This document shows positions 36,001-60,454 of a stretch of 63,223 nucleotides of DNA, piece by piece. The stretch lies in sequence record SRR22947727_633; one strand, written 5' to 3'. A program made the translations under genes and the position numbers. The first letter of the stretch is position 1, and every line of letters starts with the position of its first letter. Below the pieces are notes generated by a model. The model saw nothing but the letters and a program-made list of their open reading frames with translations. It was not told where the DNA came from and made no database searches.

Positions 36001-36042
36001 CTCAGTAGCGTTAATTGCCCTAAAATAGTGAAATAGCTTAGA

Positions 36043-36453: not shown

Positions 36454-36557
36454 GCAAAATTACAATAAGTCAAGTCAAATATAAAGTCTAAAGGGAATAT
36501 TCAATTAGATCTTATATAATATCAAATATTTGTAGCTTTATAACAAAATGAACCCGT

Positions 36558-37220: not shown

Positions 37221-37272
37221 TTTTAATTAAATCTATTTGATTTTTTTTAAAACAGTCCTAAAATATCTTTTT

Positions 37273-38742: not shown

Positions 38743-38844
38743 GGGATATTATTATTCATTTTTACATAAAATATGACAGAACTGACGTATATTTGCTGAC
38801 TATTGAACCTTTATTCATTTGGTTCTTAAAACTTATCAATCGAA

Positions 38845-39303
38845 ATGGCGAGAGCGCAAGAAACCTTTAACAAAAAAGAGAAAGAGAAGAAACGTCTAAA
38901 AAAACGTGACGACAAACAAAAGAAGAAATTGGAACGCAAAGCCAATGCTGAAAAACCAAATAGTTTAGAAGACATGTTGGTTTATGTAGATGAGAATGGT
39001 CACTTTACAGACACCCCTCCAGATCCAAGTTTAAAAGTTAAGGTAGACGCAGAGAGTATTGTTATTGGAATTCCTAAAAAAGAAGATAGGGATGAAGAAG
39101 AAGAGGATCCATTAAGAACTGGAAAAGTCTCTTTCTTTGACGCATCAAAAGGCTTTGGATTCATTATAGATGCTGTTTCTCAAGAAAAGCACTTTGTTCA
39201 TGTAAGTGGTTTAATTGATGAAATTATGGAAAATGATAAAGTTAGCTTTGAATTAGAGCGTGGTCAAAAAGGAATGAACGCAGTTAAAGTTACAAAGCAA
39301 TAG
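38845..39303 (+). CDS. Cold-shock domain protein with Lys-rich N-terminal extension
   Basis: KGFGFI and HFVHVS RNP motifs; TATATTTG promoter element at 38788-38795. Confidence 0.9.
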   Translation: MARAQETFNKKEKEKKRLKKRDDKQKKKLERKANAEKPNSLEDMLVYVDENGHFTDTPPDPSLKVKVDAESIVIGIPKKEDRDEEEEDPLRTGKVSFFDASKGFGFIIDAVSQEKHFVHVSGLIDEIMENDKVSFELERGQKGMNAVKVTKQ

Positions 39304-39358
39304 TTTTAAATATCTTACTAAAATACTTTCTTTAATTAATAAGATTTTGTTTGAACAT

Positions 39359-39395
39359 AAAAAAGTCCTGTAAATTATTTTTACAGGACTTTTTT
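39359..39395. terminator. Bidirectional intrinsic terminator between convergent genes
   Basis: AAAAAAGTCCTGTAAA-TTATT-TTTACAGGACTTTTTT. Confidence 0.88.
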
Positions 39396-39413
39396 GTGTT
39401 TTATTGGGGTTAA

Positions 39414-40964
39414 TTACATACCTCCTTTTCTATTGGGAGATCTGGTAGAAGGCCATTTCATTTGTTTTCCGGTTCTTTTACTCACCGGCAATACTATCTT
39501 TTCTCTAGAAGTCTTTTCGTTGTCTTCAGACGCCATATAAGCCAATACAGCTGTTAGAATGGCATTGTTTCTAAGGTCATCAAAAACAATCTTGTCATAA
39601 GTGTCTCTATTGGTGTGCCATGTGTAATTCCAATAAGACCAGCTCAGGGAGCTCAAGCTAAATGCTGGGGCACCAGCTGCAACAAAGGAAGCATAATCTG
39701 AACCTCCCCCCCCTGGAGTACCGGGAAAATTAGTCTCTATGTGTTGGGTAATATCTTGTGGAACTTCATGAAGCCATCTGCCTATATAATCATAAGCATG
39801 AAGAAAACCTTGCCCAGAAATATTAACAACCCTTCCGGTGCCATTGTCTTGGTTAAAAACTGCTTGAACCTGTGAAACTATTTCTGGGTGGTCTTCAACA
39901 AAGGCCCTTGATCCATTTAAGCCTTGTTCTTCACTGCCCCAGTGACCTACTAAAATGGTTCTTTTTGGATTTGGCACAATTTTTTTAAGAATTCTCATCG
40001 CTTCCATCATGACTAAAGTACCTGTTCCATTGTCAGTTGCACCTGTACCTCCATCCCATGAATCAAAATGTGCAGATAGAATGACATATTCCTCTGGTTT
40101 TTCTGACCCTCTAATTTCTGCAATTGTATTAAACGTTGGTACTTCTCCTAGATCTTTTGATTGTGCTACAATATTCAAAACTGGGTTTTCTCCTCTAAGA
40201 GCCAGCCTATATACCATAGAATAGTCCTCTAATTCCAAATCTACCGTGGGAATTTTTTTTGTTCTGGCACTAAATATTTTGCTCACGCCAAAACCTTTGG
40301 ACCAATAGGAGCTTACAATTCCCGCAGCTCCTGCATTTTCTAGGGCTTCAATGATGCTTCTTGAGGTGAAACCAGTGTTTTTCATGTTTTCTCTCCAAGC
40401 GTTATTAGCCGCTTCTCTTTCAGATTTCATTTTTTCAATCGAAGCCTCTGTAGCAAACTCTTCCCAATTATAATCAGGCCTTCCAGTGGTCTCTAAGGGA
40501 GAAATCATGACCAATTTACCTTTAACCAATGGCAACCAATTTTGAAATTCTTCAGGACTAGACACTGTAGGCAAAACAATTACTGCAGCAGTAACCCCTT
40601 TCTTTGAAGTAGATGGATTCCATGCAAGTTGTGTTCCCTTTAAACTTTGAATTCGAGGAGACAACATATCTATGTGTGTAATGCCCCTTTCCCAACCCCT
40701 CCAGGTTCCATAGGATTCGTTTCTAGCAGAAACACCCCATTGGCTGTATTTATCTACCGCCCAATCGTGGGCTTGTTTCATTTGAGGGGTGCCCACAAGC
40801 CTTGGACCAATACCATCCATGAGTTCTTGTCCAAGAATTTCTAACTGAGAATTTTCATTGGCTTCAGATACTATTTGTTCTATAACAGATTGGTCCTGTG
40901 CCCAGCCACTAAAAATAAAGCAAATGGCTATAATAGCGAAGTTTATAAATTGTTTTTTCATCAT
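39414..40964 (-). CDS. M28 peptidase (carboxypeptidase Q-like), secreted
   Basis: GPRL.G, AHFDSWD, ATDNGTG, SEEQGL.GS, SDY, WHT..DT. Confidence 0.9.
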   Translation of the reverse strand: MMKKQFINFAIIAICFIFSGWAQDQSVIEQIVSEANENSQLEILGQELMDGIGPRLVGTPQMKQAHDWAVDKYSQWGVSARNESYGTWRGWERGITHIDMLSPRIQSLKGTQLAWNPSTSKKGVTAAVIVLPTVSSPEEFQNWLPLVKGKLVMISPLETTGRPDYNWEEFATEASIEKMKSEREAANNAWRENMKNTGFTSRSIIEALENAGAAGIVSSYWSKGFGVSKIFSARTKKIPTVDLELEDYSMVYRLALRGENPVLNIVAQSKDLGEVPTFNTIAEIRGSEKPEEYVILSAHFDSWDGGTGATDNGTGTLVMMEAMRILKKIVPNPKRTILVGHWGSEEQGLNGSRAFVEDHPEIVSQVQAVFNQDNGTGRVVNISGQGFLHAYDYIGRWLHEVPQDITQHIETNFPGTPGGGGSDYASFVAAGAPAFSLSSLSWSYWNYTWHTNRDTYDKIVFDDLRNNAILTAVLAYMASEDNEKTSREKIVLPVSKRTGKQMKWPSTRSPNRKGGM

Positions 40965-41064
40965 TACTTTAGGTTTGTTTATTGACTAAATATAACAAAT
41001 AATGGAAGAAAAAAATTAAGACCTATCAAGTTCATTTCATTAAAGGAAATAAAAGCCCATACCA

Positions 41065-42471
41065 TTAGGGTTCTAAGGAAGGAATCACTAAGCCCATAGC
41101 ATTAAATAATACGGCCTTGTTAGTCAAATACTTATTAAAAGTGGTGTTTAATTTAATTTTAGACTCTATGAGTTTTTGCTCCCTACTGATAACAACAAAA
41201 AGGGAACTTTCACCTGCATTAAATTTCTGCTGTTCACCGATTAATAATTTACTGTAATTGGTTACTAATCCGGTAGAAAGATCCAGTTGCTCCACAAGCG
41301 CTCTTTGCGCTTGAACACTTTGGGATACCTTATTTTGAATTCGCACACTTTCAAAATTAAAATCTAATTGTGCATCTGAAAGTTTTAATGCGGTTATTTT
41401 TAAATCGCCTCTTTCTTTCCTTAAAAATAAGGGCAATTGCACCTTAACTCCAGCCTTGTATTGTTCTGTATTTAGTGGTGTTATTTGGTCCAAATTACTT
41501 TGTAATACATTGAAGTTTGCAGTTAAATCTGGGAATAAACTAGCCCTTTTTAAGGAACGGTCTATTTTTAAGGTACCCACTTTAGCTTCTAGGATATTTA
41601 ATTTTGGGTGTGTGGCTAAATAAAAATTATCTAATCCTCCATTTTCTATACCTAAAAATGCATCTATCTCAAGATCAGATACACTTATAGGAATGGAGTT
41701 TTCAGATATTTCTAAGGGTATATTGTCTTCTCCCCATAAATAATTAGAAGCTTCTAATCGGGCTTTCACTAAATTAACTTCTGATTCAGACAATGATAAA
41801 ATACGTTGCTGAACATTGGTGAACGACTCTACTGTGTCTATCATAGCAATATCACCACTTAGTGCGCGTTGTCTAACACCCTCGTATCGCTTAGCTGCAT
41901 TGTTTCTGAACTGAACATTTACTTGGTAATTGTCATATGCCAATAACCAATTAAAATAAGCTAAAGAAGCCTCAGTGACCAGCTCGTTGATCAATAAATC
42001 TCTTTCTGCTTGTGTTTGATTGATTATAATAGCCGCTTTTTTTAAAGTGGCCATACGTTTGTTAATCCATAAGCCTTCAGAAGCATCTAAACTGATTCCC
42101 GCAGAATACAATCCGTCAGTAGGTAGTTTATCTTCTGGATTTAAAAACACGCCGTCATTGACCGAATAATCTCCTTTTAGTGAAAGACCAAACCAAGTGG
42201 GTATAGAAATACTACCTCCTGATTGGTTATAATACAATTGGTCATTGTACTTTTTTTGTTGGTTTTCAAAAGTAAGTTTAGGATCAAATGCGCCCCTTGC
42301 CATTTGTTGATTGGCTTGGCCAAATTGTGCCCTGTTATAGGCTTGAGTTAATAAAGGATGGTTGTCAGTGACATATTCTAAATATTTAATATAACTCAGC
42401 GAAGGGGTATCTTGGCTATATATAGAAGACAGACCAAAAACAATAAATAGATAGGTTAAAAACGTATTCAT
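41065..42471 (-). CDS. TolC-family outer membrane efflux protein
   Basis: Helical efflux-protein pattern, F..GESSLF; last gene of the ABC-HlyD operon; start likely MNTFL at 42471. Confidence 0.85.
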   Translation of the reverse strand: MNTFLTYLFIVFGLSSIYSQDTPSLSYIKYLEYVTDNHPLLTQAYNRAQFGQANQQMARGAFDPKLTFENQQKKYNDQLYYNQSGGSISIPTWFGLSLKGDYSVNDGVFLNPEDKLPTDGLYSAGISLDASEGLWINKRMATLKKAAIIINQTQAERDLLINELVTEASLAYFNWLLAYDNYQVNVQFRNNAAKRYEGVRQRALSGDIAMIDTVESFTNVQQRILSLSESEVNLVKARLEASNYLWGEDNIPLEISENSIPISVSDLEIDAFLGIENGGLDNFYLATHPKLNILEAKVGTLKIDRSLKRASLFPDLTANFNVLQSNLDQITPLNTEQYKAGVKVQLPLFLRKERGDLKITALKLSDAQLDFNFESVRIQNKVSQSVQAQRALVEQLDLSTGLVTNYSKLLIGEQQKFNAGESSLFVVISREQKLIESKIKLNTTFNKYLTNKAVLFNAMGLVIPSLEP

Positions 42472-48362: not shown

Positions 48363-49301
48363 ATGGACCAGACTTCTAAAAACCCAGTACTCGTTATACT
48401 TGCTTTTATTGCTATATATGTAATCTGGGGGTCTACTTATTTACTCAATAAAATTGCGGTCACTGAACTAGACCCATTTATGTTAGCGGCCATTCGCTTT
48501 ATAGTATCTGGTTGTCTTATATTTATTATTGCAATAATCTCAGGTAGGTCTATAGCAATCACAAAAAAACAGGCTGTTAATACGGCCATTGCTGGGTTTT
48601 TATTTTTGAGCTTTGGAAATGGGGTAGTGGTATGGGCATTGAGATACGTAGACACAAGTTTTGCCGCTTTAGAAATTTCCTCACAACCCTTAATTGTACT
48701 TTTACTAATGAGAATATTCCAGGGGAAAAAAATTTCTCCAATGTCTCTGCTTGGTGTGTTTTTGGGATTTATAGGAATATATCTTTTGGTCAGCCAGAAA
48801 AGTATTTTAAACCAAGAAAATTCCGTTCTTGGAATGGTAATGATTTTCTTTTGTATGGTCAGTTGGGCCAGCGCAAGCTTATTTGTGGGTAAAGCAGACC
48901 TCCCAAAAAACTTTTTAGTCAACACAGGTTACCAAATGATTTTTGGTGGTACCATATTAGCTTTAGCGAGTATTGCGATTGGAGAACAATGGAGCAACCC
49001 CATAAATTGGTCCGTAAAGGTGCAGTGGTCTATTGTACTATTAGTGATTTTTGGAAGTATTATAGCCTTTACCTCGTTTAACTATTTACTCAAGGTTGTT
49101 TCTCCTGAAAAAGTAGCTACCAATACCTATGTAAATCCAATTATTGCGCTACTTATGGGGTGGTATTTTTTAAATGAGCAGATTACGCAACAATCCATTA
49201 TTGCTTCAGCGGTTCTTTTAACAGGAGTGTTTTTTGTAAACACAAAAAAACAGTTGGTCTTATTTAATCGTTTCAGGACTAAAAAGAATCCGCTTAAATA
49301 A
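48363..49301 (+). CDS. EamA/DMT family transporter
   Basis: IYVIWGSTY, YVNPIIA, about 10 TM segments. Confidence 0.9.
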   Translation: MDQTSKNPVLVILAFIAIYVIWGSTYLLNKIAVTELDPFMLAAIRFIVSGCLIFIIAIISGRSIAITKKQAVNTAIAGFLFLSFGNGVVVWALRYVDTSFAALEISSQPLIVLLLMRIFQGKKISPMSLLGVFLGFIGIYLLVSQKSILNQENSVLGMVMIFFCMVSWASASLFVGKADLPKNFLVNTGYQMIFGGTILALASIAIGEQWSNPINWSVKVQWSIVLLVIFGSIIAFTSFNYLLKVVSPEKVATNTYVNPIIALLMGWYFLNEQITQQSIIASAVLLTGVFFVNTKKQLVLFNRFRTKKNPLK

Positions 49302-49349
49302 AAATAGGGGAGTACCAATAAAGACTCGTATCTTTGTACAAATTCTACT

Positions 49350-50717
49350 ATGGACGCGCCTTTAACCACCTCATTTGAGGAATTTAATCTAAATACCCCC
49401 TTAAAAAATAACCTATCAGAGGTTGGTTATGAAGTACCGACCCCCATACAAGGAGCCACTTATGCCTCAGTCTTGTCAGGTCAAGATGTACTGGGATTAG
49501 CACAAACTGGAACAGGTAAAACCTTGGCGTACTTACTACCTATTTTAAACGACCTTAAATTTGCAAAAGAAAAGACAGTTCGCGCCTTAGTGATTGTGCC
49601 AACAAGAGAATTGGTTTCTCAAGTTGTTGAGGAAGCGGAGAAAATCTGTCAGAATACCTTTATTCGTGTTTGTGGGGTACACGGGGGTAATTCCATGAAA
49701 AAAGACCGGGATGCTTTGGCGCAAAGCGCCGACATCATTGTAGCAACTCCAGGAAGGTTGTACGATTTATTTTTAGCTAGAGTCATAAAATATGCTGCCA
49801 TAAAGAAAGTGGTCATAGATGAAGTAGACGTTATGTTGGACCTTGGATTTAGGTTTCAACTCACCAACATTTTTGACCTTTTGCCTAAAAAAAGGCAACA
49901 TATTATGTTTTCTGCCACCATGACGGATGAAATTGAAAGCCTTATTTCAGACTTTTTCATTGCGCCAAAAAGGATTTATATTGCTATGAGTGGTACACCA
50001 CTCAAAAATATAGCACAAACTGCCTATGCAGTCCCTAATTATTATACAAAAGTCAATCTATTACAACATCTTTTGGAACAAGAGGAAACCTTTAAAAAGG
50101 TATTGGTTTTTGTATCTAATAAAAAAATATCTGACCGAATTTACGAACAACTAGAACCTGTTTTTGAGAAGAATATAGGGATTGTTCATGCCAATAAAAC
50201 ACAAAACCACAGGAATAGGGTCCTGAGTGCGTTTGACGCAGGAAGGATCCGTATTGTAATTGCTACAGATTTAGTCGCTAGAGGTTTAGATATAGATCAA
50301 ATATCCCATGTAATAAATTTCGATACGCCCAAATATCCTGAAAACTATATGCACAGGATTGGAAGAACGGGTAGAGCTAACGCAGATGGAAATTCCATAT
50401 TGCTACACAATCCAGAAGAGTTGGCATATAAGGAAGCCATTGAGACGCTCATGCAAATTGCTGTACCTGACGTTGAATTTCCCAAAGAAGTGCCTGTTTC
50501 TATTCAATTAGCTCCTGAAGAACAACCCCATACATTTGAACCAGATTCAGATAAATTACAAGGAAGAGATCCGTCTTTAGGATCCGGTTTCCATGAAAAG
50601 TCAGAGAAGAACAAACAAGAAAATCAAGGAGGTTCATACAAACGTATCATAGCTAAGAAATACAAAAAGCCAAAGACTCGCGGCGATAAGAATTACAACA
50701 AAGGGAAAAGAAAGTAG
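49350..50717 (+). CDS. DEAD-box RNA helicase
   Basis: Q motif TPIQ, AQTGTGKT, PTREL, DEVD, SAT, ARGLD, HRIGRTGR; TATCTTTG at 49329-49336. Confidence 0.93.
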   Translation: MDAPLTTSFEEFNLNTPLKNNLSEVGYEVPTPIQGATYASVLSGQDVLGLAQTGTGKTLAYLLPILNDLKFAKEKTVRALVIVPTRELVSQVVEEAEKICQNTFIRVCGVHGGNSMKKDRDALAQSADIIVATPGRLYDLFLARVIKYAAIKKVVIDEVDVMLDLGFRFQLTNIFDLLPKKRQHIMFSATMTDEIESLISDFFIAPKRIYIAMSGTPLKNIAQTAYAVPNYYTKVNLLQHLLEQEETFKKVLVFVSNKKISDRIYEQLEPVFEKNIGIVHANKTQNHRNRVLSAFDAGRIRIVIATDLVARGLDIDQISHVINFDTPKYPENYMHRIGRTGRANADGNSILLHNPEELAYKEAIETLMQIAVPDVEFPKEVPVSIQLAPEEQPHTFEPDSDKLQGRDPSLGSGFHEKSEKNKQENQGGSYKRIIAKKYKKPKTRGDKNYNKGKRK

Positions 50718-50783
50718 TTTTTTGTGTTATAATTTCTTTGGTATCAATCATTGAACTAGTAAAGTGTTTGAATACAAATGTAT

Positions 50784-50814
50784 TTGTTCTATAATGTTCC
50801 GCGTTATGTAACTT
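50784..50814 (+). other. Degenerate dif-like XerC/XerD site with 9-bp spacer (left island boundary)
   Basis: TTGTTCTATAA-TGTTCCGCG-TTATGTAACTT; arms match the site at 57759 at 10/11 and 9/11 positions. Confidence 0.7.
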
Positions 50815-50952
50815 GAGCTTTGATTAAAAGCGAAAAGTTTCTACTAATTTTCTCTGGTTTTTTTCTTTCTAAAAATTTTCATTTCAAAAGGTAATGGAAC
50901 ACTTTTTACGCGAGCCGACCCTAGGAGGGGAGTTTAATGTGTGTGGAATGGT

Positions 50953-52182
50953 TCAACTAGCTTTTGTATACTTAATAGATATGGTACCATTCACTAATCT
51001 ATTCTCATTATCAATACCACTAAAAACGCCATCTTGAATTAATTTTTCATTTTTTAGATAGAATGTTTTAAAATAGACATTTACCCTTTCTAATGCTATG
51101 ATTCCTGAAAAAGTAAATCTAAAATTTATAACTGTCCCTTTATTTATAAGTTCCATTCTATCTTTTTCTATATATACATTTTCGGTTAAAGTAATTATCT
51201 TATAATTTGAAGACAAAACTTTGAATTTGATCACTTCAGTATAATTATCTTCTAAATTAAAACTGAGTTCATAGGTTCCAGGTATTTTTGAATAAATGGA
51301 TGAAAACGGACTTTTATCAGATAATTCTAAATAATGTTTAGGGACTTTACGATTATTAATAATTCGTTTATTTCTAATTTCTAAAGCAATATATGGGGGA
51401 ATATTGAAGTTTTTTGACTTTTCTTCCATAATCTGTCTTGATTCACATTTTTCAAGAATAGATCGTCCAGCAACCGTATTAGAATAAACATCAAAGTTAC
51501 TATAGGTGCCTACCAAAAAGTTAATATTTGATGGTTCTTGATGTCCTATGTAATATATTTCACTTGAGCCATTAATGTATCTACCACTAGATAGTGTTTT
51601 GGTTCTAATATAAATGGTGTCTCCTTGTCTTACAATAGTACCATGACTATAATGTTCTTTTAAAGTACGATCTTCTTGAGGATACATGAATACATGCTGA
51701 ATTTTAGTCCAGTTATTAGAAATAATCGTTTGCCCTTTTAGAAGAATGTCTTCCTCGCCAAAATAATAGTTCAAATAATAATAGGTGGTATTAGCTGAAT
51801 CTTTATTCAGTAATGCCAGTTGTTTCTTAATTTCATCTTTAGATAATTTATAATCGTCTAAAAACTTTTCAAAATTTTCATAACCTATATATAATAGAAT
51901 AATAGATTTATAGTATTCATTTAATTTGATGGTGGCTTTCCCTTTTTCTAATTCCCTCGATTTATCATAAAGATATTTACCATTAATAACCTCAGTACCA
52001 ATAGTTTCAAAATCCTTTTTTAAACTAGGTTTGTTTTCATCAAAAGCCCCATACCCATATAATTGAAAGGTTTTAGGTAGTTTAGATAACTGATGCTTTT
52101 TAGTAAATTTTGCATGTACTGCTTCTAAAACAATTTTGAAATATTCTGAAGTTAACACGAGGGCACCTGATTTTACTGGCAT
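50953..52182 (-). CDS. Hypothetical protein; candidate regulator (helical N-domain plus two tandem beta-rich domains)
   Basis: 409-aa soluble-looking ORF divergent from the TonB receptor; internal repeat VGTYSNFD..TVAGRSIL versus DGVFSGID..LVNGTISI. Confidence 0.6.
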   Translation of the reverse strand: MPVKSGALVLTSEYFKIVLEAVHAKFTKKHQLSKLPKTFQLYGYGAFDENKPSLKKDFETIGTEVINGKYLYDKSRELEKGKATIKLNEYYKSIILLYIGYENFEKFLDDYKLSKDEIKKQLALLNKDSANTTYYYLNYYFGEEDILLKGQTIISNNWTKIQHVFMYPQEDRTLKEHYSHGTIVRQGDTIYIRTKTLSSGRYINGSSEIYYIGHQEPSNINFLVGTYSNFDVYSNTVAGRSILEKCESRQIMEEKSKNFNIPPYIALEIRNKRIINNRKVPKHYLELSDKSPFSSIYSKIPGTYELSFNLEDNYTEVIKFKVLSSNYKIITLTENVYIEKDRMELINKGTVINFRFTFSGIIALERVNVYFKTFYLKNEKLIQDGVFSGIDNENRLVNGTISIKYTKAS

Positions 52183-52207
52183 ATAAAATTCCTGAAATTT
52201 TTATAAA

Positions 52208-52231
52208 ATTATTAAAAATATTTTTAATAAT
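52208..52231. promoter_or_regulatory. Perfect 24-bp palindrome in the divergent intergenic region (candidate operator)
   Basis: ATTATTAAAAATATTTTTAATAAT is self-complementary, but entirely A/T. Confidence 0.35.
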
Positions 52232-52295
52232 AAAAATGAATAAGAATTAATATCTAGCTGATTACTTTAGAACAACTAATTAATTCTTCCATATC

Positions 52296-54632
52296 ATGAA
52301 AACAAACATTTTATGTGTACTACTGCTAGCGACATCTATTGCATTTGCACAAAATAACATAACGGGAAAAGTAACTGACACCTTTGGTGAACCATTACCA
52401 GGTGCGAATGTTTTAGAACAAGGCACAACTAACGGAGCTATTGCCGATTACAATGGAAATTATACAATTACGGTTACTTCAGAAACTGCCGTTTTAGAAT
52501 TCTCATACTTAGGTTTTGAAAAACAAGAGGTTACAGCTAGTAGCAGCATCATTGATATTCAGTTAACGGAATCTTCTGAAGCATTAGATGGGTTAACCGT
52601 ACAGGGTTTTGCAGGTGTTATTGGTAAATCGCGTAAGCGAACTGCTTCCATTCAAACCACACCAGAATCTGTTACAGCATTGAATGCAGAGGGCATCGAA
52701 AGTGCTGGGGTAACTGATATTAACTCGTTTTCAACTTTGGTACCTAATTTAAAATTCAATTCCGCACAAGCAGTTGGTCTTAACTTTATAACCGTCAGGG
52801 GTATACCTCAGGTTAGGGGTGGAGATGCACCTTTAGCGTTTGTTATTGATGGTGTTACCATTCCTGACCCAAGTTTATTAAGTCAAGGCTTATTTGATTT
52901 AGCCTTAGTGGAAGTGGTTAAAGGACCACAAGGTGCCTTATACGGTAAAAATGCTATTGGTGGTGCCATCAACATTTATACGAAAGAGCCCACAAATAAA
53001 ATGACTAATCGTATTATGCTTGGTGCAGGTAATGGTGGTAATTTACAAGCACAATTTGTGTCTTCTGGTGCCATTTCAAAAGACAAAGTTTTCTATCGTT
53101 TCTCTACGCAATACAAAAATTTTGATGGGTTGTTAACCAATGAATTCCTAGACCAAAAAGTTGATTTCTCTAAAGAGTTTAGTGTTAGAGGCCAAATTAA
53201 AGCCAGGGTATCTGATAATTTCACGGTAGCAGCAACCATTCAGCATTTTAATATAGATGGTGGCGCAACCTATTACTCGGTTAATCCGACGGGTACTGAT
53301 GGCGAATTTACAGGAGGTATTTTAGACCCGAATCCGAAGGATGGAAATAATGTAATTTTTGCGAATGTCTTGGGAAGATCCGACATGAAAAACAATTACG
53401 GAAACTTTAAGATGGATTACAATCTAAAGGGTGCAACCCTTCAAAGTATTACCTCCTTCAATAAAGTCGGCCGATCAACAAATGGTGATTTAGATTTTTT
53501 AGAGCTTGATGGCTTAACGCAAGCAGAAGAAATTAGTACAAATACCTTTAATCAAGAAATACGAATCAATAATACGAATACAGATACAAAATTCGATTGG
53601 AGTGCAGGTGGTTTTTATCAGAATATCAAAAGAGATGTATTGCAAAACGGAACAACTGGAGTTGACTTTGGTGGACCATTTGATTTTGATACTTCAGATT
53701 TTGTAAATGAAACAAAAACCATAGCCCTGTTTGGTTTTGGAGACTATAAAATAACAGATAAGTTTACGGTTTCTGCAGGTTTTAGATATGACATCGACAA
53801 CTTTACACAAGACGATGCATTATTTGTTACGAATTCAGAAAGAGATAATAGCGAGTTTCAACCCAAAGTTTCATTGTCGTATCAAGTATCAAAAGATGTA
53901 TTGTTTTACGCCAACTATGGTAGAGGCTATAGAAACGGAGGCTTTAATGCAGATGCTACTGATTTGTTTAATAGAACTTTTGATGATGAAACATCAGACA
54001 ATTATGAGCTAGGTTTTAAAACAACATCTTGGAACGATCGTTTCATTTTTAATGGTTCAATCTTTAGTTCTAACTTAACCAATCAGCAACAATACATTTT
54101 AGACTTAAACACTTTTATTGCAGGTATTTATAATTATGATGAAACCAAAGTGTTTGGTTTTGAATTAGAGTCTCGTGCTAGGTTAACTAACTATTTAGAC
54201 GTTTTTGCAAATTTCGGATTATCTGACGCAGAAATAATTAATGGAGGGGCTAGTGGTATTACTGATTATTCTATTTATGACGGACAAAAGGTGCCTTTTG
54301 TTCCTGTGAGTAGTTTTGCCGTTGGTTTAGAATCATCATTTAACATTAATGACAATCTAAAGTTTAATGGGTTTTTAAATCTTGATACTACAGGAAAAAC
54401 ATATTGGCATGAAACCAATACAGATGCAAATACAACAGCAGCATATTCGTTACTTGACGCACGCATTGGTTTATCTTATAAAAACTGGAAGCTTGATATT
54501 TGGGGTAAAAACCTTACCGACACGCAATACTACAGAGAATTTTCGCCAGGAGAATTTGTGGGCAGTCCTGATGACGTAGCTTGGAGAGGTCAACCCGTAT
54601 CTGTTGGCACAGCACTAACTGTAAAATTCTAA
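52296..54632 (+). CDS. TonB-dependent receptor (non-SusC type)
   Basis: Signal peptide, N-terminal GEPLPGANV..GT domain, plug motif VEVVKGPQGALYGKNAIGGAINI, NLTD..Y, C-terminal Phe. Confidence 0.93.
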   Translation: MKTNILCVLLLATSIAFAQNNITGKVTDTFGEPLPGANVLEQGTTNGAIADYNGNYTITVTSETAVLEFSYLGFEKQEVTASSSIIDIQLTESSEALDGLTVQGFAGVIGKSRKRTASIQTTPESVTALNAEGIESAGVTDINSFSTLVPNLKFNSAQAVGLNFITVRGIPQVRGGDAPLAFVIDGVTIPDPSLLSQGLFDLALVEVVKGPQGALYGKNAIGGAINIYTKEPTNKMTNRIMLGAGNGGNLQAQFVSSGAISKDKVFYRFSTQYKNFDGLLTNEFLDQKVDFSKEFSVRGQIKARVSDNFTVAATIQHFNIDGGATYYSVNPTGTDGEFTGGILDPNPKDGNNVIFANVLGRSDMKNNYGNFKMDYNLKGATLQSITSFNKVGRSTNGDLDFLELDGLTQAEEISTNTFNQEIRINNTNTDTKFDWSAGGFYQNIKRDVLQNGTTGVDFGGPFDFDTSDFVNETKTIALFGFGDYKITDKFTVSAGFRYDIDNFTQDDALFVTNSERDNSEFQPKVSLSYQVSKDVLFYANYGRGYRNGGFNADATDLFNRTFDDETSDNYELGFKTTSWNDRFIFNGSIFSSNLTNQQQYILDLNTFIAGIYNYDETKVFGFELESRARLTNYLDVFANFGLSDAEIINGGASGITDYSIYDGQKVPFVPVSSFAVGLESSFNINDNLKFNGFLNLDTTGKTYWHETNTDANTTAAYSLLDARIGLSYKNWKLDIWGKNLTDTQYYREFSPGEFVGSPDDVAWRGQPVSVGTALTVKF

Positions 54633-54667
54633 ACACTTTCATTAACTATAGTTTAATTAGTTTAAAT

Positions 54668-54696
54668 GGGAGGGAAATTAAACCTTCCCTCTTTTT
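54668..54696 (+). terminator. Hairpin with short T-run between receptor and enzyme genes (partial terminator or stabiliser)
   Basis: GGGAGGGAA-ATTAAACC-TTCCCTCTT-TTT. Confidence 0.5.
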
Positions 54697-54707
54697 ATGT
54701 ATTCCAA

Positions 54708-55748
54708 ATGCCAACAGACAAACAATTAATTACAACGCGCTTTTCTAAAATATTAATTGAAACCATGTTTCAAGTAAAACCTGGTGAAACGGTAGCCATT
54801 ACTGCAGATTCTGAATCTAATCGAAACGTTATAGATGCTATAGCCGCAGCAACCACAGTTGCTGGAGGAATACCTTTAGTTATGCGAATACCAAAAGCTG
54901 CCCAAAGCGGGCAGGCTGGCATGAAAGAATGGCCAGCAGAAGCATTAACTGCAGCACTTTGTAAGGTAGATGTATGGATTGACGCACAATCAACAGTATT
55001 ACTATATTCTGATATTTGGGAAACCGCTTTTAAAGAAAATAATAAATTAAGATATCTAATCATAGCAGATTCTAGTATCGAATCTTTAGATAGAATGTTT
55101 ACCGGTTTTGATATCCAATTACTTAAATCTCTTTTAAGTAAAGTTAGAGATATGGCAATGGCTTGTAAAAAAGTTCATATTACGAGTACTAATGGTACCG
55201 ATGTGTCTTATGATATAGACCTTAATTATGCATTTGATATTGATGATGGCGATTATTCTATGCCAAAATTCGGAACGGCTCCAGGGTTTATAAATATAGT
55301 TCCTAAATTAGGCAGTATGAATGGGACTATCGCTTTTGATATATTGGAAGGAGCTCCAAGAGATGGCCAAATACAATTCACCATGAAAAATGGTTCAATT
55401 ATAGATGTAAATGGAGAAAATGGAGTAGAAGATTTTAAATCATATTTGGCATCATTTGATGATGAAAATATGTATAAAATATCTCATAATATGTTTGGCT
55501 TAAATCCAGGAATAAAAGCCATAACAGGCGAACTTTGTGAAGACGAACGTATTTGGGGTGGAGTAGACTTTGGGTTTGGTCACACTAGTGCAATGGATAT
55601 GCCACCTTATGGTCAAGAAGCAAAATCGCATTTTGATGGTGTGGTTACTAACGTTTCTATATATTTAGACTACATTCAAATTTTTGACAATGGTGTCGTA
55701 TGCCATCCTGATTTAATACCCTTGGTCAATAACTTATTAACTAATTAA
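54708..55748 (+). CDS. M29/aminopeptidase-T-fold metalloenzyme, NicX-like
   Basis: VKPGETVAITAD, ITSTNGTD, NGTIAFD, ISHNMFGLNP, EDERIWG, SHFDG; start likely MPTDKQ at 54708. Confidence 0.72.
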   Translation: MPTDKQLITTRFSKILIETMFQVKPGETVAITADSESNRNVIDAIAAATTVAGGIPLVMRIPKAAQSGQAGMKEWPAEALTAALCKVDVWIDAQSTVLLYSDIWETAFKENNKLRYLIIADSSIESLDRMFTGFDIQLLKSLLSKVRDMAMACKKVHITSTNGTDVSYDIDLNYAFDIDDGDYSMPKFGTAPGFINIVPKLGSMNGTIAFDILEGAPRDGQIQFTMKNGSIIDVNGENGVEDFKSYLASFDDENMYKISHNMFGLNPGIKAITGELCEDERIWGGVDFGFGHTSAMDMPPYGQEAKSHFDGVVTNVSIYLDYIQIFDNGVVCHPDLIPLVNNLLTN

Positions 55749-55749
55749 A

Positions 55750-57015
55750 ATGGCAGAAGACCAAAATCAATACACGACCACAAAAGTGCAACCAAATGAC
55801 TTTGTGTCTGGTTGGGTTGTTGGTTTCATTATTGCGAGTACAGGATTATCAGTTTCTACATTATTTTTAGGTTCAGAAATTGCACTCAATCTAGGTCTTA
55901 AGCAAGCGCTTATAGCATTTGGTATTTCCACATTTGTTTTGACTTTAATGTGTATGGCAACCACATTAATTGGTAATCGATCTCGGTTATCAACGTACAT
56001 GATTCTACATTTTAGTTTTGGAGAATATGGAGCTAAAATTGTCAATTTTATTTTCGGTGTTACATTAATTGGTTGGTTTGCTGTAGCCATAGAGTTATTA
56101 GCAATTGCCATATATGATACTTCAATAAGTACTTTCAATATCATTGTATCAAAGGAGCTTATCATCATTGTAACAAGTCTGTTTATAACCGTTACAACAG
56201 TTTACGGCTTACGCAGTATTGAAAAGCTTGCCAATATCTCTATTCCAATTTTAACGGCGTTTTTAGGGTATGTCTTTTATCTATGTGTAGCAGATTTAGA
56301 GAGTCTATCGCAACTTTTCGACTATGTTCCAAAAGAAAATTCAATGACACTTTTTGAAGCAACGTCTATTTTAATAGGTGCTGCAGTTTTATTTCCTGTA
56401 TTAATGGCAGATTTTTCTAGATTTATAAAAACAGATAAACAAAGTTTATTTTCAGTATTGGGTTTAACTATAGGTACACCTTTAGCCTATATTCTAAGTG
56501 CTGTACCAGCTATTCAAACGGGTGAAGTTGATATTATTAAAATAATGCAGCAGTACAATTTGGTAATTCCTGCGTTTATATTATTGTTTATAGCGACTTG
56601 GAGTACCAATGCCACCAATCTATATTCCGCCAGCTTAACATTTTCAACAATTAACAAAAACTGGACTTTTAAAAAGGTTGCTATAGTTGCGAGTATATTT
56701 GGTACAATATTAGCCTTGTTAGGTTTTGCTACCTATCTATTTGATTTTCTAGAATTCCTTGGAATATTAGCACCATCAATTTCTTCAATATATTTCATTC
56801 ATTTCTTTTGGATTAAAAAACAGAAATATAATCTAGAAGATATAAACAAATGGGAATCTTCAGCTTTAATTAGTTGGGTGTTGAGTTCCGTAATTTGCCT
56901 ATTTACATATTTAGAAGTTTTTCAATTAACTAGAGCCTATTTTATAGATTCGTTTTTGTTGGGAGGGCTTATTTATTTGATACTAGAAAGAAAAAATATC
57001 TTGAATAAAAATTAG
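55750..57015 (+). CDS. NCS1-family (cytosine/purine permease-like) transporter
   Basis: About 12 TM segments, FG..GAK, IGWFAV, ADFSRF, TNATNLYSA. Confidence 0.88.
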   Translation: MAEDQNQYTTTKVQPNDFVSGWVVGFIIASTGLSVSTLFLGSEIALNLGLKQALIAFGISTFVLTLMCMATTLIGNRSRLSTYMILHFSFGEYGAKIVNFIFGVTLIGWFAVAIELLAIAIYDTSISTFNIIVSKELIIIVTSLFITVTTVYGLRSIEKLANISIPILTAFLGYVFYLCVADLESLSQLFDYVPKENSMTLFEATSILIGAAVLFPVLMADFSRFIKTDKQSLFSVLGLTIGTPLAYILSAVPAIQTGEVDIIKIMQQYNLVIPAFILLFIATWSTNATNLYSASLTFSTINKNWTFKKVAIVASIFGTILALLGFATYLFDFLEFLGILAPSISSIYFIHFFWIKKQKYNLEDINKWESSALISWVLSSVICLFTYLEVFQLTRAYFIDSFLLGGLIYLILERKNILNKN

Positions 57016-57031
57016 GTTTAAGCTAGATTTT

Positions 57032-57250
57032 GGCCTAAGAGAATTTTAGCTAAACAATAGGAGAGGGGAGCGGCCATATTCTAGAGGGCTGGTAATTAAG
57101 TTTATTAACCACCTTAATATTTGAAAGAGTTCGAGGCAGTCTTAAGAGTTAGAATGCTTTCTAGAATATAGCGACCGAGCCGTACATTGTTTCTAAAATT
57201 ATCTGTAAGCCTTGATTTTTTTGTTTCTTTTTTTATCAAGAAAAAAAGAT
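57032..57250 (-). ncRNA. Structured RNA-like element: 5' H-type pseudoknot plus long hairpin (resembles the Flavo-1 motif, unverified)
   Basis: Minus strand UCUUUUUUU-CUUGAU-AAAAAAAGA-(9 nt)-AUCAAG, then nested stems GGCUUA/UAGGCC, AAUUUUAG/CUAAAAUU, AAACAAUG/UAUUGUUU, GCUAUAUUCUAGA/UCUAGAAUAUGGC. Confidence 0.55.
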
Positions 57251-57286
57251 AAATAAAAACCTTACTGGTTACAATGTTGAAATCCT

Positions 57287-57297
57287 ATTTTACATAA
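57287..57297 (-). repeat. Isolated XerD-arm half-site (inverted)
   Basis: ATTTTACATAA, the exact reverse complement of the dif right arm; no recognisable partner arm. Confidence 0.55.
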
Positions 57298-57484
57298 TGT
57301 TAGGGACACATTAAAAAAAAACTTCAAACAAGACGAGAGGTTAGCAAGGGCTAAGAAATTATCTCGCAGAGTAATTTTTAGCTGTTGCGGCACGCTGACG
57401 AGAATGCTGTAGAAAAAAATCTTGCACACATTTTCTCGAATACACGAATTTTAAATGAATCTAAAAGGCTAGCTTTTAAATGGC

Positions 57485-57571
57485 GTTGGCAAGCGATGGC
57501 AAATTGTGTTTAAATTTAAAATGCGTTTTTCAGCATTTTATAATTTAAAAAGCAATCGAGCGCTTGGTAGC
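57485..57571. repeat. Long imperfect inverted repeat abutting an inverted dif-like site
   Basis: CAAGCG/CGCTTG, ATTG/CAAT, TTTAAATT/AATTTAAA and TAAAATGC/GCATTTTA nested around a GTTTTTCA loop. Confidence 0.7.
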
Positions 57572-57575
57572 GGCT

Positions 57576-57604
57576 ATTTTACATAACGGCTAATTATAGA
57601 TACA
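57576..57604 (-). other. Inverted dif-like site with 7-bp spacer
   Basis: Minus strand TGTATCTATAA-TTAGCCG-TTATGTAAAAT. Confidence 0.72.
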
Positions 57605-57693
57605 AATGTTTTATAAACTCTGCGAAGCAAACCGCTTAATAGTTTAATGACCCAAGTTCCAATTATTCTTATGAAATACAATGCTTCTGGGAT

Positions 57694-57722
57694 ATTTTAC
57701 ATAATACTACATTATAGCTATC
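57694..57722 (-). other. Inverted dif-like site with 7-bp spacer
   Basis: Minus strand GATAGCTATAA-TGTAGTA-TTATGTAAAAT. Confidence 0.72.
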
Positions 57723-57758
57723 AAATGGACTTCTCTCATAAAATACCAATGATAACAT

Positions 57759-57786
57759 TTGTACTATAATTTATATTATGTAAAAT
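57759..57786 (+). other. dif: Probable chromosomal dif site (XerC/XerD recombination site)
   Basis: TTGTACTATAA-TTTATA-TTATGTAAAAT: 11-6-11 geometry; right arm matches the E. coli XerD arm TTATGTTAAAT at 10/11 and the spacer matches TGTATA at 5/6; intergenic. Confidence 0.8.
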
Positions 57787-57831
57787 AGAAGCAGTCAATA
57801 ATAATTAATTTACGAACCCTTACACCTATGA

Positions 57832-58293
57832 CTAAACTAAAATCATAATAAAAGTCAATACAATTCCTGCAACAGTATAATAAATGGCTTTTTTAAAAAC
57901 ATCTGTCTGTGGGAGAAACATCCAATAGGCAGAAAAAACAAAGAAAAGTAAAGAGATACCAAAAAAAACATTTAGAAAATATAAAGGTGTAGATGATGTG
58001 GCTTTATGCATTTTTTCAAGCGCTCCTAATATTTTTGGTGGTTGCATTTGTGTATAAGACAAACCACCTGTTTCACTATTATATTCAACGTTAGAGGCAC
58101 CTTTTATATTAGGTAGATTCTCTAAACCTTTTTCTATGGTTTTTTCTACTACTATAGGTTTCTTGAAATAATCTTTATCTCTAAAAGTTAATGTGATTCC
58201 TGAAAGCGCATAAACAAACATAATACCAGCCAGAAAAAAACCTAAATAGCGGTGAATGACCCTGACTTTGTTACTTAAATTCCTGTTATTCAT
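57832..58293 (-). CDS. PepSY-associated TM domain membrane protein
   Basis: R.IHRYLG.F, SGITL, L..MHK, three hydrophobic segments. Confidence 0.75.
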   Translation of the reverse strand: MNNRNLSNKVRVIHRYLGFFLAGIMFVYALSGITLTFRDKDYFKKPIVVEKTIEKGLENLPNIKGASNVEYNSETGGLSYTQMQPPKILGALEKMHKATSSTPLYFLNVFFGISLLFFVFSAYWMFLPQTDVFKKAIYYTVAGIVLTFIMILV

Positions 58294-58477
58294 TTATTCT
58301 TAAAATTTGTATTTATTATGGTATAAAATTAATCATGAACCCTCTTAAAACCAAAAATTACTTTAAAGTATTCAATGGTCTATTCATCATTTACAAGATT
58401 GATGTTAACTATCGTAAGACCCTTAATTAGTGGGAAAGTTTAATAAGCCTACTTAGATCTTTTTAAAAAAAACAAAT

Positions 58478-60454
58478 TTAAAAGTTTATTAATTCTAGGA
58501 GGGCTTTTTCAAATCTTTTTCTTGGTAGATATTCATTCTCTAAGGATTTTGCAAAAGGAATAGGGGTGTTTAAACTTGCGACTCTTTTGATTGGAGCGTC
58601 CAAATACTCAAATAATTCCTCTTGAACACTTGCTGCTATATCACTTGAAATACCACCAAACAAAGAATCTTCTTGAAGAATGATTAGCCTAGAAGTTTTT
58701 TTTACAGAGCCATAAATAGTCTCCCAATCCAATGGCATTAAGGTTCTTAAGTCTATAAGATCTACGCTTAGTTTAGGATGCTTTTCAAGGGTCTCTAGTG
58801 CCCAGTGTACCCCAGCACCATAAGTTATAATTGTAGCCTCTGTACCTTCTTTAACCAAAGCAGCTTTACCTATTGGAAGGTTGTAATACCCATTTGGAAC
58901 GGATTGAGAGATTGATCGATACAGTGCTTTATGTTCAAAGAAAAGTACTGGATTTGGATCTTCAATTGCGGTAATTAATAGGCCTTTAGCATCATAGGGA
59001 AAAGCAGGGTAAACGACTTTTAAACCAGGGGTTTTAGTAAACCATGCCTCATTGGTTTGTGAATGAAAAGGACCAGCCCCTACCCCTGCACCACAAGGCA
59101 TTCTAATGACAACATCTGCTTTTTCTCCCCACCTAAAATGGTTTTTTGCCAGATAATTAACAACGGGATTGAATCCTGAACTTACAAAATCTGCAAATTG
59201 CATTTCAACAATGGCTTTAAAACCACCAATTGACAATCCCATGGCTGTTTCTACAATTCCAGATTCACAAATTGGGGTATTTCTCACACGTTCACTGCCA
59301 AATAAATCTACAAAACCCTCTGTCACTTTGAATGCACCTCCATATAGCGCAATATCCTGGCCCATGATAATCGTGTTTTTCATAGAAGACATGACTTCTT
59401 TTAGGCCCTCTTGAACGGCGTCAATAAATCTAATATAACTTGTATTAACACCACTTTTTACTGCTTTAAAATTAAATGGGCTATAGACATCTTCAATAAA
59501 TGATTTTTCCTCATAGGCTATGGGCTCTTCCTTAAAAGCGAAGTCTAAACCCTCTTGAATGTCTGTTTTTATCTCTTTTTTGAAAGATTTAAGCATCCCA
59601 TCATTCAAAATATTTTTTGAGAATAGATAATTTTCAAAGTTTGTTATAGGGTCTTTTTCTTCCCACGCACTAATTAATTCTTTTGGGACATATTTTGTGC
59701 CGCTGGCCTCTTCATGCCCACGTCTTCTAAAAGTTATAAATTCAATGAGAACAGGTCTAGGATTTTTTCTAACACTTGCGGCTATTTCACTTATTTTTTG
59801 ATAAACTTCTACTATGTTGTTTCCGTCAATTTGGTGGGCTTCCATGCCATATCCAAGCCCTTTGTCTACAATTGCTTTACAACGGTATTGTTCGCTAGTG
59901 GGCGTAGACAATCCGTAACCATTATTTTCAATACAAAACAATACTGGTAAATCCCAAACTGATGCAATATTCAGTGCTTCGTGAAAATCTCCCTCACTGG
60001 TGGCACCTTCACCAGAAAAAACAGCAGTAACTTCGTTATTATGCTTCAATTTGGAAGCTAGCGCAATGCCATCGGCCACACCAAGTTGTGGCCCTAAATG
60101 AGAAATCATTCCAATAATTTTACTTTCTTGACAGCCAAAATGAAAGCTCCTATCCCTACCTTTAGTAAAGCCAGATTTTTTTCCTTGCCACTGAGCAAAT
60201 AACCTGCTTAGCGGTATATTTCTACTGGTAAAAACACCTAGATTTCTATGCATGGGTAATATATATTCCTCTGTATTGAGGGCTAAAGTCACTCCTACGG
60301 ATATGGCTTCTTGACCAATACCACTAAACCACTTTGATATTTTACCCTGCCTGAGTAGCACAAGCATTTTTTCTTCTATCATTCTCGGCTTTAATAGTGC
60401 CTTGTATAATGTTATCAGTTGTTGGTCTGATAGTCCTTTTGTACGGTATGTCAT
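58478..60454 (-). CDS. 2-oxoacid (probably branched-chain) dehydrogenase E1, fused alpha/beta
   Basis: GQEA, TPP motif GEGATSEG..ENNGYG, RGHEE, NTPICE, EMQFADF, HSQ, DLRTL.PLD. Confidence 0.92.
   Translation of the reverse strand: MTYRTKGLSDQQLITLYKALLKPRMIEEKMLVLLRQGKISKWFSGIGQEAISVGVTLALNTEEYILPMHRNLGVFTSRNIPLSRLFAQWQGKKSGFTKGRDRSFHFGCQESKIIGMISHLGPQLGVADGIALASKLKHNNEVTAVFSGEGATSEGDFHEALNIASVWDLPVLFCIENNGYGLSTPTSEQYRCKAIVDKGLGYGMEAHQIDGNNIVEVYQKISEIAASVRKNPRPVLIEFITFRRRGHEEASGTKYVPKELISAWEEKDPITNFENYLFSKNILNDGMLKSFKKEIKTDIQEGLDFAFKEEPIAYEEKSFIEDVYSPFNFKAVKSGVNTSYIRFIDAVQEGLKEVMSSMKNTIIMGQDIALYGGAFKVTEGFVDLFGSERVRNTPICESGIVETAMGLSIGGFKAIVEMQFADFVSSGFNPVVNYLAKNHFRWGEKADVVIRMPCGAGVGAGPFHSQTNEAWFTKTPGLKVVYPAFPYDAKGLLITAIEDPNPVLFFEHKALYRSISQSVPNGYYNLPIGKAALVKEGTEATIITYGAGVHWALETLEKHPKLSVDLIDLRTLMPLDWETIYGSVKKTSRLIILQEDSLFGGISSDIAASVQEELFEYLDAPIKRVASLNTPIPFAKSLENEYLPRKRFEKALLELINF

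Follow-up and report, generated by a model that had tools for sequence, protein, structure and literature searches.

The DNA analysed here, referred to as the window, is a stretch of 63,223 nt (record SRR22947727_633), and all coordinates given below are positions in it. The segment 50795–57769 lies at dif, the chromosomal dimer-resolution site of the host recombinases XerC and XerD (XerCD), and is probably a single cassette, or unit, from a widespread mobile family that encodes no protein of its own. Comparison with relatives clearly indicates that this segment was inserted into a single dif of the window lineage. A first-pass annotation of the same DNA had read the locus as the capture of a bare group of genes by the host. 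The insertion, its polarity and an integron-like route for non-phage cargo in Flavobacteria are borne out, the last by a large array-forming family, whereas bare capture gives way to a cassette with its own conserved non-coding backbone of ~0.9 kb, and the partner chosen for a hairpin at the junction, the site at 57694, gives way to another site that is predicted to pair better.

The three dif-like sites on which that annotation was built (50784–50814, 57694–57722 and 57759–57786) were all reproduced at these positions. The direct left site, 50784–50814, is composed of TTGTTCTATAA, the 9-bp spacer TGTTCCGCG and TTATGTAACTT. Inverted site 2 (57694–57722) reads GATAGCTATAA, TGTAGTA (7 bp) and TTATGTAAAAT on its reverse complement, and is separated by a 36-nt linker (57723–57758) from the present dif, 57759–57786, whose 11-6-11 arrangement is TTGTACTATAA, TTTATA and TTATGTAAAAT. 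Two sites had been overlooked, namely a second inverted site with a 7-bp spacer (site 1, 57576–57604; reverse complement TGTATCTATAA, TTAGCCG, TTATGTAAAAT) and a lone inverted XerD arm at 57287–57297. The dif-like sites are more than chance would give: the pattern CTATAA-N6-9-TTATGTAA occurs four times in the window against 0.01 expected, with none of 100 shuffles getting to four, and the four exact copies of TTATGTAAAAT in the 63 kb all fall within 57287–57786. Inverted sites 1 and 2 are diverged direct repeats of one another (repeat family D2), and the lone arm forms an inverted repeat with the dif XerD arm (I25, 14 nt, 100%). The element XerC arm differs from the arm of the genus at one position, the element XerD-like arm matches at 9 of 11 positions, and the centre is 9 bp long as against 6.

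The DNA search covered 61 genomes, 17 of them from the same genus as the window. In the nearest one (G001), whose flanks are 99% identical to those of the window, 49350–50795 and 57756–58300 map to one contig and overlap by 15 bp; its empty site is a single TTGTTCTATAA-TTTATA-TTATGTAAAAT between the DEAD-box helicase and PepSY_TM genes. The two flanks lie 85–141 bp apart in five of the 17 same-genus genomes (G001, G013, G005, G004 and G011), and a single dif with the arm TTGTTCTATAA was read at eight of the nine same-genus loci examined, L021 being the one where it was not found. Another genome of the genus, G014, has cassette ends at the homologous site, split across two contigs, with cargo unlike that of the window. 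Empty-site relatives and different cargo with breakpoints at the same sites had both been predicted, and both were seen, the latter in other genomes. Since the window has TTGTTCTATAA at the left junction and the family-consensus arm TTGTACTATAA in its present dif, the unit was gained by the window and not lost by its relatives. The aligned junctions firmly place the exchange point inside the shared CTATAAT, at the boundary between XerC arm and spacer, and indicate just as firmly that a canonical 11-6-11 dif was restored on the XerD side, its spacer and XerD arm being those of the chromosome, so that more units can stack there. This polarity is what the XerC-side exchange suggested earlier should leave. 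Published work describes the same outcome for XerC-first integration of integrative mobile elements exploiting Xer (IMEXs), as well as the hairpin of CTXphi and arrays in which one side has a new dif (PMC9226527; PMC3442271).

The backbone of the unit is evidently conserved across genera, whereas its cargo is not. Among the 61 genomes the window's cargo was matched in only one (G032, 68%); the non-coding ends 50785–50952 and 57030–57790 match many genera at 70–90% identity, often several times per contig. These conserved ends, ~140–160 bp on the left and ~740–760 bp on the right, ~0.9 kb in total, are best taken as the element itself. A unit runs in the order XerC arm, spacer TGTWCYGCG, arm TTATGTWACTT, left-end module LE of ~140 bp with a near-invariant final motif, cargo, and right-end modules R1, R2 and R3. 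LE contains a small hairpin, a T-rich stretch and the terminal motif TAGGAGGGGAG...AATGTGTGTGGAATGG, directly after which the cargo begins; in the window, BLAST homology of the left end to relatives ends at 50950–50953. R2 opens with a lone inverted XerD arm, and R3 contains the two inverted sites and an XerC arm, followed either by the 9-bp spacer of the next unit or by the chromosomal dif spacer and XerD arm.

Units are arranged in tandem, three in G024 and two or more in G032 and G022, and they lie on the XerC side of the terminal dif in all nine arrays where that dif was seen. A genome scan with a 25-nt signature, one genome per species, located the signature site in at least 120 genome stretches, naming 39 genera of Flavobacteriaceae. 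It was also found in Owenweeksia, in a metagenome-assembled genome of Cyclobacteriaceae and in Roseivirga, where the left end is diverged but still recognisable; the family reaches Cytophagales. At least 120 metagenome contigs carry the site. The loci of relatives and of the genome scan (L032–L167) contain 132 signature sites, and 44 of these have an inverted site within 520 nt upstream, which marks them as internal array junctions. The rule that internal junctions have long linkers and terminal ones short linkers was considered and rejected, since internal junctions with the short form of 36–60 nt occur.

Some members depart from this plan. A variant signature site, with the spacer TGTCGCGCA or TGTCTTGCG and the arm TTATGACACTT, lies at 6028–6058 of contig C20 of G032 and at ~5240 of L152; pattern scans would miss it, so the family is larger than counted. 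Some units have a second cargo slot, with small open reading frames (ORFs) between R1 and R2 (L033 9037–9492; L189 11956–12704, which is G067:C1 577,956–578,707); these ORFs are of 150 aa and of 139 and 109 aa, and one weakly matches a low-molecular-weight phosphatase. These arrays also hold a second, dif-linked class of element, with a 9-bp-centre inverted site abutting a 5-bp-centre direct site and an XerC arm ~70 nt later (L040 2950–3130, − strand; L042 5460–5660 and 10100–10200, − strand; L054), and in L042 two copies of it lie 4.5 kb apart, adjoining dif. In Polaribacter sp. Hel1_85 (L077), one unit has GC-rich hairpin inserts of ~27–35 bp, at ~470–520 and ~7270–7310, which break the XerD-like arm of its left site and its module R2 and look like miniature repeats that disabled the sites.

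No protein is common to the units, as judged from all-against-all BLASTP of the ORFs of 15 regions. A small backbone protein was also considered and rejected, because none of 18 stop-to-stop frames of at least 25 aa is open in most relatives, the best being open in 4 of 10. Six host Xer queries matched 2 of 2129 frames from 139 sources, neither of them inside a unit, and the same queries and sources gave no tyrosine recombinase adjoining the arrays. The cargo is diverse. In the 35 units complete within their own 8-kb chunk it measures 250–6825 bp, and the 33 units with more than 1 kb of cargo hold 102 ORFs of at least 90 aa, of which 80 are co-oriented with the unit. These ORFs match 86 Pfam families, none of which is found in more than three ORFs; the family lists hold the 25 commonest of these 86 and, likewise, of the 60 PHROG families matched. 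The Pfam families listed include C5 methylases, NgoPII endonuclease, STAND NTPases, AraC regulators, SnoaL, aldehyde and homoserine dehydrogenases and an alginate-export porin, and PADLOC together with PHROGs identified methyltransferases, capP and an abortive-infection protein. No structural, replication, relaxase, coat or assembly family is among those listed for the 102 ORFs (Pfam, PHROGs). Single units that were scanned carry type I restriction-modification with an AAA ATPase, a TetR/old-yellow-enzyme/redoxin set, a HATPase and UvrD-like pair, a Colicin_D-domain protein, or ParD/ParE. Mini-units with ParD/ParE as their sole recognisable cargo were noticed at 4440–5240 of L152 and in L281, a whole contig of 2248 nt, and in one of them the left end is cut down to the site, the small hairpin and the terminal motif. 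They recall the toxin-antitoxin cassettes that stabilise large chromosomal integrons.

The non-coding backbone is structured. The consensus of R1 (57030–57262, 34 members) is predicted to be a seven-helix rod of 33 pairs, with 98.3% of cells paired. Compensatory changes occur in 7 of the 33 pairs and amount to 33 cells, compared with 8.1 ± 2.2 in shuffles, of which 0 of 500 reach 33; controls with slid partners give 0–4 doubly changed cells. The structured non-coding DNA noticed in the first-pass annotation is therefore confirmed for this module. G-T wobbles on the + strand are present in 30 of 34 members at one pair and in 8 of 34 at another, and their conservation implies that the folded strand would be +. 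The predicted rod fits two roles, as a 3′ untranslated region or terminator for the cargo genes, most of which are co-oriented, or as a signal in DNA of the + strand. Rfam 15 gave no match at E ≤ 1 on both strands of 49000–59000. Contigs from RNA libraries (57031–57249 in run X18, 51620–57067 in run X14) match parts of the cargo at 0 mismatches, and a 3408-nt RNA-library contig of a related unit stops within the closing AT-rich hairpin of R1. Transcripts may end at R1, but the hint is weak, as contigs cannot prove transcription or an RNA end.

A homologous unit was found elsewhere. In Polaribacter sp. Hel1_85 four units form an array of ~26 kb up to the dif of that genome, and unit 3 of this array carries the window's four genes in the same order with 78% identity over 6.2 kb; the flanks of the array have no BLASTN match to those of the window. 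The 36-nt linker at the right end of the unit in the window is identical to the linker just upstream of this unit 3, two positions that a circular intermediate would bring together. Marine and aquatic metagenomes from six or more studies also contain the unit. Summed contig depth is ~200–290 at the flanks and ~23 in the unit in run X10, and ~85–100 and ~50–60 in run X1; these depths sum related strains and show heterogeneity at the locus, not excision. Metagenome contigs with other sequence stop at 50785, 50831, 57755–57759 and 57790. The 2248-nt contig L281, with the signature site and ParD/ParE, has a terminal overlap of 46 nt (1 of 82 whole metagenome contigs); it may be a circle or a collapsed tandem repeat, and serves as a lead.

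The dif in question appears to be that of the replication terminus. Its core of 30–35 bp recurs once per genome across many genera, and the cumulative GC skew of the window peaks at 54–58 kb. In both complete genomes examined (G022 and G062; 10-kb skew) the GC skew changes sign from + to − at the homologous site, the change being sharp in G062 (+0.115 to −0.117) and noisier in G022. The idea that dif lies opposite dnaA was rejected: dnaA is 0.13–1.1 Mb from the array, 3–28% of the genome, in five complete Flavobacteriaceae chromosomes, and the assignment of the terminus hence relies on GC skew. In G062–G066 (contig C1 of each) dnaA is near the dif array, in G062 at 135 kb from the sharp skew switch, so dnaA is no marker of the origin in these five genomes. 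An XerD equivalog and a second Xer-like paralog are present in four of the five genomes searched, the fifth being 64% complete.

These observations raise the question of which form of the DNA is exchanged. When the circular junction of the unit is rebuilt, the minimum-energy DNA fold pairs the direct site with site 1 (57576–57604). The predicted pairing, 16 bp with one bulge, runs past the XerC arm around a 9/7-nt bubble. Across 17 distinct natural internal junctions the mean duplex energy is −17.6 kcal/mol with site 1 and −11.7 kcal/mol with site 2, and site 1 is the better partner in 16 of the 17. Own-partner duplexes of these junctions beat 200 of 200 partner shuffles, for site 1 and site 2 alike, and the arm-plus-flank score of 37 junctions is 10.81 for own partners versus 9.80 ± 0.21 (maximum 10.47) for shuffled ones. 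The spacer of site 2, being 5, 7 or 8 bp long, suits a bubble better than a duplex site. All three XerC arms have changed in concert in one cassette, the terminal unit of Hel1_85.

We propose that host XerC would carry out one strand exchange between the element site and dif, as in the XerC-first pathway, with replication resolving the junction. The left site may be shielded from FtsK-driven excision by its 9-bp centre and by its altered outer XerD arm, with ACTT for AAAT; such protection by the outer XerD arm is proposed for the gonococcal island (PMC9226527). The active attP would be a fold of the + strand in which 57576–57604 pairs with the direct site, made up of XerC arm, 9 nt and XerD arm, around the 9/7-nt bubble, the observed left junction requiring that the exchanged strand be +. 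This is the form of attP that we favour, at only slightly below an even chance, and such a fold would work like the attP(+) of CTXphi or the attC of integrons. The + strand left of the terminus would be the lagging-strand template, which is where integron attC sites are thought to fold. Folds there could release units from the array as single-stranded circles, and such release would need no element-encoded replication protein. More tentatively, the family may be a second, independent 'integron' of marine Bacteroidota, in which XerCD is the recombinase, dif is the platform and cassettes leave and re-enter as single-stranded circles; the cassettes might then carry a long folded single-strand recombination site and structured cis elements, and no gene.

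Several observations weigh against this picture. The partner specificity of the predicted fold is weak and no more than suggestive, as the sequences are related and shared ancestry can inflate it, and most paired positions of the junction fold are also constrained by protein binding. The concerted change of XerC arms was not seen in L137 and L074. Nothing encoded in a unit could make single-stranded DNA, and no Xer substrate is known to have a spacer as long as 9 bp. No whole-unit joint or circle junction is among the joints listed for four runs, which come from contigs that drop rare forms, and a search of 2.9 million viral contigs gave no match to the signature site. A joint between 57597–57599 and 57755–57765 (runs X10 and X18) gives a right end with one hybrid inverted site, as if sites 1 and 2 had recombined, so that one inverted site may suffice. 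Finally, the window's four genes occur in the same order and with 68% identity, without recognisable backbone, at 35,739–41,803 of G032:C20 (L037 3746–9772), ~28 kb beyond the last array module; this copy could be a capture, a decayed old unit or the native source locus.

The alternative that stands up best, although we think it unlikely, is a double-stranded route of the cer type, in which a circle with a 9-bp-spacer attP uses R2–R3 (0.5 kb, on the XerC side) as accessory DNA for synapse, XerC makes a Holliday junction and replication resolves it, with no need of a hairpin. The junction polarity suits any XerC-first exchange, and plasmid resolution sites such as cer have a centre longer than 6 bp. 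Array units are bordered by directly repeated, near-identical 9-bp-spacer sites and could excise as a double-stranded circle, for which contig L281 is a candidate, although it could equally be a collapsed tandem repeat. Plasmid resolution sites with accessory sequences by the XerC arm use this pathway, cer being discussed in PMC9226527. However, the cer-like route gives no role to two conserved inverted sites, each with both arms, leaves the complementarity beyond the XerC arm unexplained, and would have to accommodate a site 2 whose variable spacer would disturb a duplex XerCD site.

It is improbable that the unit is a satellite whose backbone provides nothing but signals acting in cis (an origin for rolling-circle replication or transfer, a packaging signal and attP) and which depends on an unseen helper, a filamentous phage or conjugative element, for nickase and vehicle, as RS1 and TLC depend on CTXphi. 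The backbone does contain ~0.7 kb of conserved, + strand-structured DNA beyond the Xer sites, more than an attP needs, and a second dif-linked class with adjacent inverted sites occurs in the same arrays. The arrays themselves meet a known need, since in the CTXphi literature rolling-circle release from the chromosome requires tandem copies. The lack of signature matches in the viral contigs argues against a satellite, no replication, relaxase, coat or assembly family is among those listed for the 102 cargo ORFs, and no candidate helper was found.

An equally low likelihood attaches to the exact hairpin of the first-pass annotation, in which the direct site folds with 57694–57722 across the 36-nt loop and TGT pairs with ACA by the XerC arm. 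A short construct, 57680–57769 joined to 50795–50830, does fold in this way (−11.7 kcal/mol), and site 2 shares in the result of the partner shuffles. Only 6 of 11 XerC-arm bases pair, however, the minimum-energy fold switches to the 57576 site when that site is present, and the internal junctions favour site 1 as described above. The TGT:ACA pairing is real in the window but is kept in only 7 of the 17 distinct internal junctions of relatives. Least probable of all is homologous exchange, in which the Xer sites are left from an old founding event and RecA swaps cassettes through backbone or dif flanks after transformation or transduction. Backbone modules 70–90% identical across units and genera would give enough homology, one cargo is invariably exchanged for another between the same pair of module edges, and truncated and chimeric units occur. 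But a whole unit separates the window from its 99% relative, and the ends of this unit fall inside 7 bp at the position of XerC cleavage; the XerC arm is swapped exactly as site-specific exchange predicts, and the empty site lacks backbone homology to recombine, so that pure homologous exchange cannot create the window junctions.

Table 1. Features of the inserted unit and its junctions in the window
Feature	Position	Strand	Basis or remark
Chromosomal XerC arm TTGTTCTATAA retained at the left junction	50784..50794	+	Same as single-dif arm in G001 and 8/9 same-genus loci
Element 9-bp spacer TGTTCCGCG and degenerate XerD-like arm TTATGTAACTT (family signature left site)	50795..50814	+	Same spacer and arm in other genera
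Left-end conserved non-coding module LE	50815..50952	+	Alignment A1, 10 members
Cargo gene 1, 409-aa hypothetical	50953..52182	−	No Pfam or NCBIfam family; Atlas: hypothetical Bacteroidota clusters only
Cargo gene 2, TonB-dependent outer-membrane receptor	52296..54632	+	Pfam Plug, TonB_dep_Rec_b-barrel, CarbopepD_reg_2
Cargo gene 3, 360-aa hypothetical	54666..55748	+	No Pfam or NCBIfam family
Cargo gene 4, NCS1-family permease, resembling cytosine or hydroxymethylpyrimidine permeases	55750..57015	+	Pfam Transp_cyt_pur
Right-end module R1: long imperfect hairpin (7 helices), then AT-rich hairpin	57030..57262	+	Alignment A4, 34 members
Lone inverted XerD-arm copy, start of module R2	57287..57297	−	Exact arm search and inverted repeat I25
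Right-end module R2: conserved non-coding, small hairpins, no conserved ORF	57300..57575	+	Alignment A2
Inverted dif-like site 1 (spacer 7 bp), predicted to pair best with the element's direct site	57576..57604	−	Pattern scan and folds
Inverted dif-like site 2, spacer 7 bp here; 5, 7 or 8 bp in relatives	57694..57722	−	
36-nt linker, sequence variable between cassettes	57723..57758	+	Alignment and Hel1_85 comparison
Element-derived XerC arm TTGTACTATAA, now in the regenerated dif	57759..57769	+	Not the genus-typical TTGTTCTATAA; equals family consensus arm
Chromosomal dif spacer TTTATA and XerD arm TTATGTAAAAT	57770..57786	+	Same as G001 empty site

From its gene families, the window's cargo reads as a nutrient-uptake module, with a TonB-dependent receptor, an NCS1 permease and two hypotheticals (Table 1). 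The receptor matches a TonB-siderophore subfamily of NCBIfam, and the permease matches cytosine permease and CytX models, all of them under the cut-offs of these models. No recombinase or phage protein is among the four ORFs (Pfam, NCBIfam), in agreement with the earlier remark that phage and integrase genes are absent.

The known exploiters of Xer are phages, satellites or else large islands that have their own genes, and the gene-free modules of Acinetobacter are on plasmids. The present family, whose backbone encodes no protein, brings a varied cargo into the chromosomal dif of much of the marine Flavobacteriaceae: restriction-modification systems, toxins and toxin-antitoxin pairs as well as redox enzymes and transporters. 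If XerCD moves the units, a housekeeping enzyme doubles as the engine of an integron-like cassette system, the replication terminus is a predictable place for strain-level accessory genes in abundant ocean bacteria, and the conserved ends are a simple sequence handle for such cargo in metagenomes. If the 'integron' reading were true, the terminus would be a store through which dozens of genera share and exchange genes for defence, toxin-antitoxin systems and nutrient uptake. Arrays are present in the cultured Polaribacter sp. Hel1_85 and Maribacter sp. X9, which form a test bed for folded single strands as a general Xer substrate outside Vibrio phages.

In a literature search that covered few subscription journals, no Xer-dependent elements were described in Flavobacteriaceae or Bacteroidota, and the work on dif islands, cassettes and arrays concerned Vibrio, Acinetobacter, Neisseria and Legionella only. 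The gonococcal genetic island of Neisseria and LME-1 of Legionella resemble the unit in being non-phage DNA at dif with a deviating outer XerD arm. This deviation is considered protective against FtsK-driven excision (PMC9226527). Both are large, with many genes of their own for secretion or plasmid functions, and are present in single copy, not as a modular family. The plasmid sites cer and psi would share with the unit an XerC-first, FtsK-independent exchange, degenerate arms and accessory DNA on the XerC side; they resolve plasmid multimers and do not integrate cargo into dif, and their accessory DNA binds PepA, ArgR or ArcA.

The pdif or dif modules of Acinetobacter, like the unit, have no recombinase gene, are bounded by XerC/XerD-type sites and presumably move by host XerCD; they carry adaptive and resistance cargo. 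They are found on plasmids and, according to recent reports, also on chromosomes. Their 6-bp-spacer sites alternate in inverted orientation, a conserved non-coding backbone is lacking, and their location is not the terminus dif. The boundaries of the unit, in contrast, are directly oriented, the left centre has 9 bp and the location is the chromosomal terminus, so the unit does not belong with these modules.

At the level of sequence the unit agrees with the IMEXs, as it lies in the terminus dif, has no recombinase of its own and has a dif-like attP, and dif is regenerated at one end. The IMEXs of CTXphi type (Vibrio cholerae, RS1/TLC arrays at dif1) likewise lie at dif without an integrase of their own, use an XerC-side exchange, and form stacked arrays with a hybrid non-dif site at one end and a new dif at the other. 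They also have inverted dif-like sites with centres longer than 6 bp that can fold into a forked hairpin, which for the unit is a prediction. The unit, unlike them, has neither phage genes nor a replication initiator, encodes no protein in its conserved part, carries arbitrary chromosomal-type cargo, has two inverted sites instead of one and resides in Bacteroidota; the single-stranded form belongs to CTXphi, whereas the unit is known from its sequence. It falls outside the phages of the CTXphi class, and it likewise lacks the platform of an integron. With integron cassettes it shares arrays, unrelated and mostly co-oriented cargo (80 of 102 ORFs in the units) including defence and toxin-antitoxin genes, a putative imperfect palindromic recombination site in each unit and the absence of a mobility gene, and the integron recombinase and Xer are of the same tyrosine-recombinase lineage. 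In contrast to an integron, the unit has no dedicated integrase gene, attI or Pc, its proposed platform being the essential chromosomal dif and the housekeeping XerCD; its conserved backbone is ~0.9 kb whereas attC is 60–140 bp, and it often holds several genes in both orientations. On this comparison, there is a real chance that the unit is an Xer-driven analogue of the integron.

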